A DNA stretch of 64,000 nucleotides from Eledone cirrhosa (Eukaryota): positions 4,278,001 through 4,342,000 of the forward strand of contig OZ024749.1 in NCBI GenBank assembly GCA_964016885.1, given 5' to 3'. Position numbers and translations under genes: made by a program. The notes under the pieces were generated by a model. The model was not told the origin of the DNA, made no database searches, and was given only the letters and a program-made list of their open reading frames with translations. This document shows positions 3,174 through 21,749 of this stretch, piece after piece (within the stretch, counting starts at the first letter, position 1; each line of letters opens with the position of its first letter).

Positions 3174-6100
3174 GAATATAGACATAGAATATTCGAAAAT
3201 ATTCTGTATGTTTATAATAAACATTTTGAAGACCTAATCGCTATAGAATAGAATACGTCACGTATTACAATTAGATTCTCGATAAAAGCAAGGGAAGTAA
3301 TCTACGCGTTTCATTCTTGTTAGAAATCATCAGGACTACATATCCAGTGCTTTTATCGAGAATGACACAGCTAGAGACTTATAGAATACTTAGCTGTGTA
3401 CAGGAACTGGTTTGAAAGAGCGGTTGCCGGTCCGGCAGAAATTAGAAATTGGAATAAATGCTCTGAAATAGCGATATATATGTGAATATAGACATAGAAT
3501 ATTCGAAAATATTCTGTATGTTTATAATAAACATTTTGAAGACCTAATCGCTATAGAATAGAATACGTCACGTATTACAATTAGATTCTCGATAAAAGCA
3601 AGGGAAGTAATCTACGCGTTTCATTCTTGTTAGAAATCATCAGGACTACATATCCAGTGCTTTTATCGAGAATGACACAGCTAGAGACTTATAGAATACT
3701 TAGCTGTGTACAGGAACTGGTTTGAAAGAGCGGTTGCCGGTCCGGCAGAAATTAGAAATTGGAATAAATGCTCTGAAATAGCGATATATATGTGAATATA
3801 GACATAGAATATTCGAAAATATTCTGTATGTTTATAATAAACATTTTGAAGACCTAATCGCTATAGAATAGAATACGTCACGTATTACAATTAGATTCTC
3901 GATAAAAGCAAGGGAAGTAATCTACGCGTTTCATTCTTGTTAGAAATCATCAGGACTACATATCCAGTGCTTTTATCGAGAATGACACAGCTAGAGACTT
4001 ATAGAATACTTAGCTGTGTACAGGAACTGGTTTGAAAGAGCTATTTCAGAGCATTTATTCCAATTTCTAATTTCTGCCGGACCGGCAACCGCTCTTTCAA
4101 ACCAGTTCCTGTACACAGCTAAGTATTCTATAAGTCTCTAGCTGTGTCATTCTCGATAAAAGCACTGGATATGTAGTCCTGATGATTTCTAACAAGAATG
4201 AAACGCGTAGATTACTTCCCTTGCTTTTATCGAGAATCTAATTGTAATACGTGACGTATTCTATTCTATAGCGATTAGGTCTTCAAAATGTTTATTATAA
4301 ACATACAGAATATTTTCGAATATTCTATGTCTATATTCACATATATATCGCTATTTCAGAGCATTTATTCCAATTTCTAATTTCTGCCGGACCGGCAACC
4401 GCTCTTTCAAACCAGTTCCTGTACACAGCTAAGTATTCTATAAGTCTCTAGCTGTGTCATTCTCGATAAAAGCACTGGATATGTAGTCCTGATGATTTCT
4501 AACAAGAATGAAACGCGTAGATTACTTCCCTTGCTTTTATCGAGAATCTAATTGTAATACGTGACGTATTCTATTCTATAGCGATTAGGTCTTCAAAATG
4601 TTTATTATAAACATACAGAATATTTTCGAATATTCTATGTCTATATTCACATATATATCGCTATTTCAGAGCATTTATTCCAATTTCTAATTTCTGCCGG
4701 ACCGGCAACCGCTCTTTCAAACCAGTTCCTGTACACAGCTAAGTATTCTATAAGTCTCTAGCTGTGTCATTCTCGATAAAAGCACTGGATATGTAGTCCT
4801 GATGATTTCTAACAAGAATGAAACGCGTAGATTACTTCCCTTGCTTTTATCGAGAATCTAATTGTAATACGTGACGTATTCTATTCTATAGCGATTAGGT
4901 CTTCAAAATGTTTATTATAAACATACAGAATATTTTCGAATATTCTATGTCTATATTCACATATATATCGCTATTTCAGAGCATTTATTCCAATTTCTAA
5001 TTTCTGCCGGACCGGCAACCGCTCTTTCAAACCAGTTCCTGTACACAGCTAAGTATTCTATAAGTCTCTAGCTGTGTCATTCTCGATAAAAGCACTGGAT
5101 ATGTAGTCCTGATGATTTCTAACAAGAATGAAACGCGTAGATTACTTCCCTTGCTTTTATCGAGAATCTAATTGTAATACGTGACGTATTCTATTCTATA
5201 GCGATTAGGTCTTCAAAATGTTTATTATAAACATACAGAATATTTTCGAATATTCTATGTCTATATTCACATATATATCGCTATTTCAGAGCATTTATTC
5301 CAATTTCTAATTTCTGCCGGACCGGCAACCGCTCTTTCAAACCAGTTCCTGTACACAGCTAAGTATTCTATAAGTCTCTAGCTGTGTCATTCTCGATAAA
5401 AGCACTGGATATGTAGTCCTGATGATTTCTAACAAGAATGAAACGCGTAGATTACTTCCCTTGCTTTTATCGAGAATCTAATTGTAATACGTGACGTATT
5501 CTATTCTATAGCGATTAGGTCTTCAAAATGTTTATTATAAACATACAGAATATTTTCGAATATTCTATGTCTATATTCACATATATATCGCTATTTCAGA
5601 GCATTTATTCCAATTTCTAATTTCTGCCGGACCGGCAACCGCTCTTTCAAACCAGTTCCTGTACACAGCTAAGTATTCTATAAGTCTCTAGCTGTGTCAT
5701 TCTCGATAAAAGCACTGGATATGTAGTCCTGATGATTTCTAACAAGAATGAAACGCGTAGATTACTTCCCTTGCTTTTATCGAGAATCTAATTGTAATAC
5801 GTGACGTATTCTATTCTATAGCGATTAGGTCTTCAAAATGTTTATTATAAACATACAGAATATTTTCGAATATTCTATGTCTATATTCACATATATATCG
5901 CTATTTCAGAGCATTTATTCCAATTTCTAATTTCTGCCGGACCGGCAACCGCTCTTTCAAACCAGTTCCTGTACACAGCTAAGTATTCTATAAGTCTCTA
6001 GCTGTGTCATTCTCGATAAAAGCACTGGATATGTAGTCCTGATGATTTCTAACAAGAATGAAACGCGTAGATTACTTCCCTTGCTTTTATCGAGAATCTA

Positions 6101-6235
6101 ATTGTAATACGTGACGTATTCTATTCTATAGCGATTAGGTCTTCAAAATGTTTATTATAAACATACAGAATATTTTCGAATATTCTATGTCTATATTCAC
6201 ATATATATCGCTATTTCAGAGCATTTATTCCAATT
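3174..6235. mobile_element. 310-bp tandem array 1 (candidate non-LTR retrozyme), fold-back: ~2.8 units with HHR on minus strand, then ~7.1 units with HHR on plus strand
   Basis: Units start at 3174, 3484 and 3794. Orientation flips at ~4040 (GAAAGAG|CTATTTC). Period is 310 thereafter. Both sides are flanked by (TA)n and every unit contains an HHR. Confidence 0.9.
4173..4215 (+). ncRNA. Minimal type I hammerhead ribozyme (representative; plus-strand copies every 310 bp up to 6033; minus-strand copies at 3297-3339, 3607-3649, 3917-3959)
   Basis: GUAGUC-CUGAUGA-U-UUCU-AACA-AGAA-U-GAAA-CGCG-UA^GAUUAC. Stem I is GUAGUC/GAUUAC, stem III is the palindrome ACGCGU, and the cleavage triplet is GUA. 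An outer helix TCTCGATAAAAGCA/TGCTTTTATCGAGA flanks it. Confidence 0.9.
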
Positions 6236-19900: not shown

Positions 19901-21749
19901 GCCGGACCGGCAACCGCTCTTTCAAACCAGTTCCTGTACACAGCTAAGTATTCTATAAGTCTCTAGCTGTGTCATTCTCGATAAAAGCACTGGATATGTA
20001 GTCCTGAAGATTTCTAATAAGAATGAAACGCGTAGATTACTCCCCTTGCTTTTATCGAGAATCTAATTGTAATACGTGACGTATTCTATTCTATAGCGAT
20101 TAGGTCTTCAAAATGTTTATTATAAACATACAGAATATTTTCGAATATTCTATGTCTATATTCACATATATATCGCTATTTCAGAGCATTTATTCCAATT
20201 TCTAATTTCTGCCGGACCGGCAACCGCTCTTTCAAACCAGTTCCTGTACACAGCTAAGTATTCTATAAGTCTCTAGCTGTGTCATTCTCGATAAAAGCAC
20301 TGGATATGTAGTCCTGAAGATTTCTAATAAGAATGAAACGCGTAGATTACTTCCCTTGCTTTTATCGAGAATCTAATTGTAATACGTGACGTATTCTATT
20401 CTATAGCGATTAGGTCTTCAAAATGTTTATTATAAACATACAGAATATTTTCGAATATTCTATGTCTATATTCACATATATATCGCTATTTCAGAGCATT
20501 TATTCCAATTTCTAATTTCTGCCGGACCGGCAACCGCTCTTTCAAACCAGTTCCTGTACACAGCTAAGTATTCTATAAGTCTCTAGCTGTGTCATTCTCG
20601 ATAAAAGCACTGGATATGTAGTCCTGAAGATTTCTAATAAGAATGAAACGCGTAGATTACTCCCCTTGCTTTTATCGAGAATCTAATTGTAATACGTGAC
20701 GTATTCTATTCTATAGCGATTAGGTCTTCAAAATGTTTATTATAAACATACAGAATATTTTCGAATATTCTATGTCTATATTCACATATATATCGCTATT
20801 TCAGAGCATTTATTCCAATTTCTAATTTCTGCCGGACCGGCAACCGCTCTTTCAAACCAGTTCCTGTACACAGCTAAGTATTCTATAAGTCTCTAGCTGT
20901 GTCATTCTCGATAAAAGCACTGGATATGTAGTCCTGAAGATTTCTAATAAGAATGAAACGCGTAGATTACTTCCCTTGCTTTTATCGAGAATCTAATTGT
21001 AATACGTGACGTATTCTATTCTATAGCGATTAGGTCTTCAAAATGTTTATTATAAACATACAGAATATTTTCGAATATTCTATGTCTATATTCACATATA
21101 TATCGCTATTTCAGAGCATTTATTCCAATTTCTAATTTCTGCCGGACCGGCAACCGCTCTTTCAAACCAGTTCCTGTACACAGCTAAGTATTCTATAAGT
21201 CTCTAGCTGTGTCATTCTCGATAAAAGCACTGGATATGTAGTCCTGAAGATTTCTAATAAGAATGAAACGCGTAGATTACTTCCCTTGCTTTTATCGAGA
21301 ATCTAATTGTAATACGTGACGTATTCTATTCTATAGCGATTAGGTCTTCAAAATGTTTATTATAAACATACAGAATATTTTCGAATATTCTATGTCTATA
21401 TTCACATATATATCGCTATTTCAGAGCATTTATTCCAATTTCTAATTTCTGCCGGACCGGCAACCGCTCTTTCAAACCAGTTCCTGTACACAGCTAAGTA
21501 TTCTATAAGTCTCTAGCTGTGTCATTCTCGATAAAAGCACTGGATATGTAGTCCTGAAGATTTCTAATAAGAATGAAACGCGTAGATTACTTCCCTTGCT
21601 TTTATCGAGAATCTAATTGTAATACGTGACGTATTCTATTCTATAGCGATTAGGTCTTCAAAATGTTTATTATAAACATACAGAATATTTTCGAATATTC
21701 TATGTCTATATTCACATATATATCGCTATTTCAGAGCATTTATTCCAAT
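16998..21749. mobile_element. 310-bp tandem array 2 (candidate retrozyme), fold-back: 9 units with HHR on minus strand, complex junction at 19788-19866, then ~6.1 units with HHR on plus strand
   Basis: Same unit as array 1 apart from two substitutions. Fold-back centre is GCGATATA|TATATCGC at 19858/19859. Flanked by (TA)n. Confidence 0.9.
19998..20040 (+). ncRNA. Minimal type I hammerhead ribozyme, CUGAAGA variant (6 plus-strand copies from 19998; 9 minus-strand copies from 17121-17163)
   Basis: GUAGUC-CUGAAGA-U-UUCU-AAUA-AGAA-U-GAAA-CGCG-UA^GAUUAC. Confidence 0.9.

Follow-up and report, generated by a model that had tools for sequence, protein, structure and literature searches.

Metazoan non-LTR (non-long-terminal-repeat) retrozymes, as reported for the axolotl (Rtz_353, with the hammerhead HHR_Amex2) and for Mytilus (units of 350-390 bp), are short, low-GC, non-coding tandem units that occur in thousands of copies, carry a canonical type I hammerhead ribozyme with a short palindromic helix III in every unit, and share their genomes with Penelope-like elements (PLEs) (PMC7229834). 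Mobilisation of retrozymes by PLEs was proposed in 2020 (PMC7761336); according to that source the metazoan elements show no motif pointing to a helper, and the circular template has the standing of a model. A recent preprint presents vertebrate retrozymes as non-autonomous PLE derivatives, on the grounds of co-occurrence and pLTR (pseudo-LTR) homology (Li, Clavereau, Pollet, bioRxiv 10.64898/2026.07.22.740005). The endonuclease-bearing PLEs themselves (Neptune/Nematis and Naiad, PMC8557442; anole Poseidon PAc, PMC11167929) are found at microsatellite or AT-rich targets, including (TA)n, as insertions with an inverted, 5'-truncated copy and a tail of 30-40 bp at one end. Purified anole Poseidon protein nicks and extends both target strands; its two internal start sites lie downstream of the hammerhead, and the tail corresponds to the sequence between them (PMC11167929). 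We describe here a family of 310-bp hammerhead units that has likenesses to both systems, found as two arrays in a 64,000-nucleotide stretch of Eledone cirrhosa DNA (the window; contig OZ024749.1, positions 4,278,001 to 4,342,000, forward strand) and followed into the rest of the genome.

Our best explanation of this family is a young non-LTR retrozyme that rides a (TA)n-targeting, endonuclease-bearing PLE enzyme, probably with a circular monomer as template; we give this reading a probability of about 0.65. The family resembles the retrozymes of PMC7229834 in all the traits listed above, down to the U.U opposition at the base of helix II that it shares with HHR_Amex2. Circles and cleavage were demonstrated in that study, whereas the 310-bp family is known from its DNA sequence alone; its copies are also far younger, and it shows fold-back arrays, fixed twin ends, tails, (TA)n targets and a cephalopod host, none of which is described in the accessible parts of that paper. 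The retrozyme class is already known, and it is the anatomy of the insertions, with fold-back, tail and (TA)n, that is informative here. A literature search returned no cephalopod retrozyme and no fold-back retrozyme insertion, though paper supplements, Dfam or Repbase may hold the family or a comparable anatomy.

With the endonuclease-bearing PLEs the family shares the inverted 5'-truncated copy, the tail at one end, the AT-rich microsatellite target and the two start sites downstream of the hammerhead. Unlike them, it has no open reading frame (ORF) with reverse transcriptase (RT) and GIY-YIG motifs, as an autonomous PLE would have, its 310-nt unit is copied up to 27 times per arm, and its hammerhead is of the canonical form. 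Moreover, the anole Poseidon enzyme starts without homology to the target (PMC11167929), whereas one start site of the 310-bp unit could pair with (TA)n. A further parallel, as PLE passengers, is given by the non-autonomous Chlamys elements such as MRC1 of Chlamydomonas, likewise non-coding and inserted as multicopy head-to-tail arrays, which belong to a green alga, not an animal, and resemble their helpers at the 3' end; canonical hammerheads are reported in only two Chlamys subclades, from other species (PMC8557442).

The 310-bp family in the window and in the genome

Tandem Repeats Finder resolves four 310-bp runs in the window (3164-4041, 4040-6236, 16988-19787 and 19856-21749). A preliminary description of this DNA had counted two tandem arrays; the tandem 310-bp units are indeed there, but each array consists of two inverted arms, a fold-back seated in (TA)n with a tail, which that description had missed. 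Its 10 hammerheads (3174-6235) and 15 hammerheads (16998-21749) were recovered in number and place by a structure scan, with 10 complete type I cores in 3173-6236 (3 on the minus strand, 7 on the plus strand) and 15 in 16997-21749 (9 and 6, respectively). In each pair the left run carries minus-strand and the right run plus-strand hammerheads, and the arms, which span 2.8-9 units with a 310-bp period, meet at their 5' ends. Both insertions sit in (TA)n, and in both one end is 26-36 nt longer than the other. Positions in the unit are numbered as window position minus 4039 (reference unit 4040-4349, plus strand). The units of the window are 99-100% identical to one another, in agreement with the recent activity first proposed for them; the two insertions differ by fixed differences at two unit positions, 144 and 154, present in all 15 units of insertion 2.

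The unit is 34% GC and its longest ATG-initiated frame, read in a trimer, has 30 amino acids, consistent with the earlier statement that it lacks a substantial ORF. Everything that could be examined here in support of the proposed retrozyme class was found: tandem units in the range of about 150-450 bp, a hammerhead in each unit, non-coding sequence below 50% GC, dispersed multicopy occurrence and a target duplication longer than 4 bp (at locus L040). We therefore assign the 310-bp family to the non-LTR retrozymes with high confidence.

A 16-mer from the core has 19,077 exact matches in the genome against none for the reversed control, and a stricter 22-mer has 10,243. The family makes up about 5.9 Mb, or 0.2% of the 3.0-Gb genome. 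Junctions to (TA)n gave 651 matches for one end and, on the forward strand only, 693 for the other, whose reverse-strand count was left unused because overlapping matches inflate it. With a mean insertion size of 10.1 units, the number of insertions is estimated at roughly 1,400-1,900. We mapped 55 clusters: the two of the window, 13 chosen for matches to the core and 40 for their tailed junction. All those outside the window lie on contig C1.

Fold-back insertions with two fixed ends

Forty-eight of the 55 mapped clusters proved to be two-armed fold-backs with arms joined 5'-to-5'. The remainder were L031 (an older copy with a 23-nt second piece), L037, L038, L096 (single arm), L039 (with a gap, a run of N inside the insertion), L107 (stretch taken from the wrong side) and L112 (an arm exceeding the stretch). 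The 3' ends of all 48 fold-backs follow one pattern: the first falls within unit 288-309, where the unit's AU-alternating tract blends into the target, and the second at position 25-30 of the following unit; 37 of the 48 had been chosen by their tailed (TA)n end, and for those only the far end counts as a test. The inverted, untailed arm was present in 37 of the 38 evaluable tail-selected clusters, and in an unselected list 10 of 16 complete clusters were minus-then-plus and none plus-then-minus. A (TA)n run lies on both sides in 47/48 (one side preselected in 37). The exception, L040, lies in non-TA DNA and has a target duplication of 11-15 nt; most other duplications would be masked by (TA)n. 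No terminal direct repeats beyond the units themselves were seen at the mapped insertions.

The centres, in contrast to the fixed ends, vary. The joins (n = 48) are scattered across the unit: 21 have an overlap of 1-4 nt, one has an overlap of 13 nt, four are blunt, 19 contain fillers of up to 30 nt and three have longer fillers. One of them, at L084, holds between the arms a 272-nt sense piece of the 5' region of another retroelement (L084 2633-2904). Its source family, with 39 of the 40 listed matches at about 19-24 Mb of G000:C25 (96-98% identical), shows a Cys/His-rich frame together with RT motifs, all in broken frames. As a lead to the helper the insert gave no result: it comes from a different retroelement cluster, and the stretches viewed there gave no sign of a GIY-YIG-type PLE.

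Eighty-five of 96 arms exceed one unit and the longest reaches 8.5 kb, so many cleavage sites must have been passed during copying. Run-off at a cleaved 5' end is not a suitable explanation of the joins, since only 2 of 96 fall within 5 nt of the predicted cut where 3.4 would be expected. Likewise, the two fixed 3' ends are found 130-170 nt downstream of the predicted cut and not at it. The tailed arm is the longer one in 24 insertions and the untailed arm in the other 24, which excludes that either is a snap-back copy of its partner. By analogy with the anole reaction, the two fixed 3' ends are best read as PLE-type internal start sites of reverse transcription, and from the signature of inverted copy plus tail we are confident that the insertions are of PLE type.

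It could be asked whether the fold-backs are artefacts, that is, chimeric reads or collapsed and polished repeats in the assembly of an ordinary hammerhead satellite, as assembly is known to have difficulty with the tandem and inverted structures of PLEs (PMC8557442) and the gap in L039 falls inside an insertion. This seems very improbable: the insertions have two fixed, distinct ends with unique flanks, their centre joins vary, and they retain their own haplotypes, which polishing would erase; to this is added the target duplication at L040. Moreover, contigs of run X2, maybe the source sample, show loose (TA)n ends at unit 30 and unit 309. Three further runs (X1, X3 and X6, under three other organism labels) contain the unit as one 340-nt self-overlapping contig at a depth of 10-15 with no differences. 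Because a tandem array collapses in the identical way, these contigs speak neither for an RNA circle nor for a transfer from one species to another; they may reflect trace host DNA.

Haplotypes of the two arms

Among the 33 insertions in which each arm has at least 600 nt, 32 have the same consensus in both arms; of 1,056 pairs taken between insertions, 147 agree. The 48 insertions hold 21 haplotypes; of their variants, 22 are fixed in all covering units, 67 are confined to a single unit, some of them maybe assembly errors, and 11 occur in some units only. Divergence within arms is about 0.05%. The template thus appears to have been of monomer length, because a new variant could otherwise not fill a whole insertion. 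Arrays, in turn, stay long only if copying exceeds the length of the template, and a circle would provide both properties. We infer that a circular monomer was the probable template. In addition, 6 of the 48 untailed arms end at the opposite start site (unit 20-30), where 1.7 would be expected, and none of the 48 tailed arms does, a weak and after-the-fact hint that fits copying from one molecule.

The same arms could also have been made from an uncut linear multimer of a homogeneous array, with two RNAs of one source locus serving a dimeric PLE enzyme; the hammerhead would then act in another step (trimming, stability or protein binding), and circles, if any, would be by-products. A multimer of this sort would likewise give homogeneous arms, the 5' joins do not pile up at the cut site, and the anole Poseidon enzyme uses mainly unprocessed RNA in vitro, where hammerhead mutants still insert (PMC11167929). 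On the other hand, a variant can fill all units of both arms only through a monomer bottleneck, and there are 22 such variants; arms of up to 27 units are at odds with the shortening that every round of copying from truncated linear multimers would bring; if the two RNAs came from a mixed pool, the arms of an insertion should often differ, which was seen once in 33; and the catalytic core appears to be kept by selection, as detailed below. We consider a linear multimer unlikely as the template.

Less probable still is that PLE-type insertion produced short fold-backs of one or two units, whose arms then grew in place by slippage or unequal exchange. Local amplification after insertion into tandems is what the vertebrate preprint favours, from 35 genomes that include no mollusc (bioRxiv 10.64898/2026.07.22.740005), and the 11 partly shared variants, some of them periodic, are the kind of pattern it would leave: insertion 2 of the window has such variants at unit 178 and 300, and L041 and L084 have others. 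Growth in place fits poorly, however, with the excess of single-unit over multi-unit variants (67 to 11), as expected of units made at once, even if some singletons may be errors, and with the low divergence within arms, whose insertions, young as they are, already average 10 units.

Fold and conservation of the hammerhead

The complete type I core, paired stem I and tiny palindromic stem III noted in the preliminary description were recovered in 25 complete motifs of the window: every hammerhead has a 6-bp stem I, a 4-bp stem II and the motif GAAA-CGCG-UA. The structure scan also predicts cleavage after position 4209, the same site. One attribute had to be revised, since the ribozyme had been called minimal. 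Beyond helix I (6 bp) follow an internal loop and a perfect 16-bp stem, helix II has 4 bp over a U.U, and helix III consists of two pairs with a palindromic loop; in the definitions of PMC4209133 the canonical metazoan type I form has a helix I of 6 bp, a helix II of 4 bp and a helix III of 1-2 bp with a palindromic loop, and, by sequence, the unit's hammerhead is of this form. It does not show the absent helix III loop, helix II of 7-8 bp and short helix I of the minimal PLE-type hammerhead (min-HHR). For canonical hammerheads with a short helix III, the best cleavage is expected as a dimer (PMC4209133), and HHR_Amex2, with the same U.U, cleaves weakly as a monomer and well as a dimer (PMC7229834). 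The search with Infernal and Rfam that had been suggested gave a weak hammerhead match (best for the unit, Hammerhead_HH9, 19.2 bits, E 0.051, below the gathering score of 52), and no hammerhead in the window reached the gathering level.

The monomer folds better than expected, with z-scores of -5.2 (linear) and -4.4 (circular); the circular 310-nt unit is predicted to fold at -67.8 kcal/mol, and forcing the active hammerhead costs only 1.5 kcal/mol. Stems I-III covary between the 310-bp family and a second hammerhead family of the window (see below), all pairs being kept and loop II and the U.U being the same; covariation is also seen inside families. We consider it likely that the ribozyme works.

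Fixed and single-unit substitutions differ in their effect on this structure. In unit 110-198, none of 9 fixed substitutions disrupts the core or the pairs, as compared with 11 of 14 single-unit ones (Fisher p 0.0003), the share expected at random being 53-63%; the test left out two fixed deletion columns and one fixed insertion. One common variant even converts the U.U to an A-U pair. Because fixed substitutions spare core and pairs, the lineages that spread appear to have kept a foldable hammerhead, which points to constraint on the fold, as distinct from catalysis. The family differs here from anole Poseidon, whose hammerhead is dispensable in vitro (PMC11167929), whereas that of the 310-bp unit appears to be under selection.

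As a separate observation, A>G changes on the RNA strand prevail among the fixed substitutions (unit 119, 136, 155, 172, 190 and 262; 6 A>G, one T>C), whereas single-unit variants show 3 A>G and 9 T>C; 136G and 190G recur on several haplotypes. The A>G excess could reflect A-to-I editing of an RNA intermediate or tolerance of G.U in stems, which explains 4 of the 6.

Resident Penelope-like elements and sister families

A broken PLE piece lies at 63104-63841 (minus strand) of the window, and its family has 35,248 first-look candidates in the genome. In the resident element a frame of 995 aa contains RT, a CX4CXXC linker and, at the C terminus, GIY-YIG-type motifs (the endonuclease was read by eye and is unscored by Pfam); by the criterion of PMC8557442 the element would be of Neptune/Nematis type. 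Its top RT copies are 95-98% identical with frames of up to 1,257 aa (L145-L147, L150-L159), and the copies are themselves minus-then-plus fold-backs at (AT)n with two fixed ends, 60 nt apart. A suitable enzyme class with the same insertion anatomy is thus present in the genome. The best match of the resident protein is an Octopus vulgaris protein (65% identical; others that cover at least half the query are 24-53% identical), and it is on this indirect basis that the cephalopod attribution of the preliminary description, and more narrowly an octopod host, is plausible. In L064, L076 and L157, retrozyme insertions lie directly in the (TA)n that terminates a Neptune-type copy, nested in the same target tracts.

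A sister retrozyme family, older than the 310-bp one, has a unit of about 320 bp, and an 18-mer taken from it has 345 matches. Its type I hammerhead is a different one, in which the palindromic helix III is longer; the family occurs at 57637-58163 of the window, in L160-L189 and at 9365-9882 of L149. It shares unit 229-310 plus 1-56 with the 310-bp family at 71-77% and uses the same two 3' ends. This common module is likely to be the protein-binding and start region, since it is shared by a family with the same ends. A more distant repeat of roughly 430 bp in L083 (200-800, minus strand) matches the end module weakly.

The second hammerhead family, with units of 468-470 bp and TA-rich inner repeats, is found at 6457-7600 and 53361-54626, with older pieces near 7992-8332, 27699-28501 and 52261-52985. 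The array at 6457-7600, too, is folded back and set in (TA)n; its tail measures about 58 nt, near the 60 nt of the resident PLE.

Helper searches covered about 0.03% of the genome. Within it, no PLE frame was attached to any of 36 loci (30 of the sister family and 6 that have a variant tail), and the 3' ends of two other Neptune-like copies gave no helper match. A PLE frame beside L039 was set aside because it lies across the N gap. The peptide AISEH in one frame of the unit is reminiscent of PLE endonucleases; it was rejected as chance, the frame being closed on both sides.

A model for the movement of the family

The following steps could account for the insertions. Arrays would be transcribed on the hammerhead strand, and the hammerheads, which probably act in pairs held together by the palindromic helix III, would release 310-nt monomers that a host ligase closes, as in coral, mussel and axolotl retrozymes. 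A PLE protein, by analogy to the anole Poseidon reaction, would nick both (TA)n strands and start reverse transcription at two internal sites 26-40 nt apart, which correspond to the observed ends at unit ~300-309 and ~25-30. The same monomeric template, presumably circular, would then extend both target ends for many rounds, as the haplotypes and the number of turns suggest. Finally, the growing cDNA (complementary DNA) ends would be joined through the 1-4 nt overlaps or short fillers observed, giving a fold-back with one tailed end. In its strongest form, each insertion would be the frozen record of double-ended rolling-circle reverse transcription by a dimeric Penelope-type enzyme on one 310-nt circle, with up to ~30 turns; we hold this form tentatively, at somewhat less than even odds. 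L1 twin priming has a similar geometry. A literature search found no title or abstract that joins L1 twin priming to Penelope.

Several points weigh against a PLE-driven retrozyme with a circular template. The anole experiments cited above, in which unprocessed RNA is the main template and hammerhead mutants insert, are one. The 11 partly shared variants imply that arrays are also rearranged locally. At unit 136, L095 (516-4526) switches allele within one arm, with G in the two centre units and A in the four outer units while the other arm has G throughout; L099 (3586-7487) shows one A among 13 units at the same position. Arms could also match because a single source locus dominates in each cell. 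As for cleavage, the U.U at the base of stem II is the feature of the weakly cutting HHR_Amex2 monomer (PMC7229834), and only one of nine Xenopus retrozyme dimers cut in vitro (bioRxiv 10.64898/2026.07.22.740005). Transcription of the unit by RNA polymerase III (Pol III) is not supported: the unit has no clean Pol III boxes, and its sense strand has two T4 runs. The resident Neptune-type PLE, moreover, has a different hammerhead-like core in its 3' untranslated region and a longer, 60-nt tail; blastn of the unit against 30 of its loci gave no match, and a profile of the end module gave none beside a PLE frame in ~0.93 Mb of loci plus the window.

We reach the same conclusion as the vertebrate preprint, that PLEs move retrozymes, from different evidence: there co-occurrence and pLTR homology (bioRxiv 10.64898/2026.07.22.740005), here insertion anatomy and arm haplotypes, with no pLTR homology to a helper found in the loci searched. 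If correct, the PLE-driven retrozyme would join retrozyme circles to PLE twin-site priming and explain the inverted-plus-tail structure of PLEs, and ribozyme "satellites" would originate without later tandem growth. If the rolling-circle form also holds, the insertions would prove from genomic data, for the first time, that transposition uses circles as its template and that the hammerhead is selected for that role; passenger and helper may then need no recognisable common sequence, and well over a thousand kilobase-long perfect inverted repeats would have been seeded, a possible source of double-stranded RNA for editing or silencing. With so many very young insertions, haplotype-labelled arms and two base-precise ends, the movement of retrozymes becomes directly testable, and the insertion ends provide the start sites, target and expected product for a reconstituted reaction.

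Features of the window

Table 1. Coordinates of the two 310-bp insertions and of an example hammerhead (window positions).
Feature	Position	Strand	Remarks
(TA)n target tract, left flank of insertion 1	3133..3172	.	
Insertion 1, untailed arm	3173..4041	-	2.8 units; 3 hammerheads (cores 3333-3303, 3643-3613, 3953-3923); 3' end at unit position 300, 5' truncation at unit position 52
Insertion 1, junction	4040-4041		arms joined 5'-to-5', 2-nt overlap
Insertion 1, tailed arm	4040..6236	+	7.1 units; 7 hammerheads; 3' end at position 27 of next unit
Reference 310-bp unit	4040..4349	+	34% GC; no ORF >30 aa
Example hammerhead, canonical type I	4149..4237	+	
Example hammerhead, distal 16-bp stem	4149-4164/4222-4237	+	
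Example hammerhead, stem I	4173-4178/4210-4215	+	6 bp
Example hammerhead, CUGANGA and GAAA	4179-4185; 4200-4203	+	
Example hammerhead, stem II	4186-4199	+	U.U at base
Example hammerhead, palindromic helix III	4203-4208	+	predicted cut between 4209 and 4210
AU-alternating tract	4340..4348	+	unit positions 301-309, where the untailed 3' end falls; candidate first reverse-transcription start site, could pair with (TA)n target
Insertion 1, PLE-type tail	6200..6236	+	overhang beyond the untailed end position; tail concept from PMC8557442, PMC11167929
(TA)n tract, right flank of insertion 1	6237..6300	.	
(TA)n tract, left flank of insertion 2	16975..16996	.	
Insertion 2, untailed arm	16997..19787	-	9.0 units; 9 hammerheads; haplotype 144A/154T
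Insertion 2, junction	19788..19861	-	few unit-derived letters plus 65-nt extra inverted piece (unit 302 to 56; 19797-19861), as from a template jump
Insertion 2, tailed arm	19856..21749	+	6.1 units; 6 hammerheads; haplotype identical to other arm
Insertion 2, tail	21715-21749	+	ends at unit position 25
(AT)n tract, right flank of insertion 2	21750..21783	.	

Outside these insertions, the window contains a 252-bp inverted repeat, 99.6% identical (2-253 and 706-957), a tRNA-like match of 51.8 bits at 29334-29404 (plus strand) that may be a tRNA-derived repeat, and, at 14966-15880 (minus strand), a broken frame that by eye resembles the end of a non-LTR reverse transcriptase and includes a 165-aa piece without a Pfam match. 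Short fold-backs in (TA)n with hammerhead-like cores and a long helix II lie at 62119-62565, 27053-27380 and about 35000-35160, and their relatives recur in many of the examined loci.

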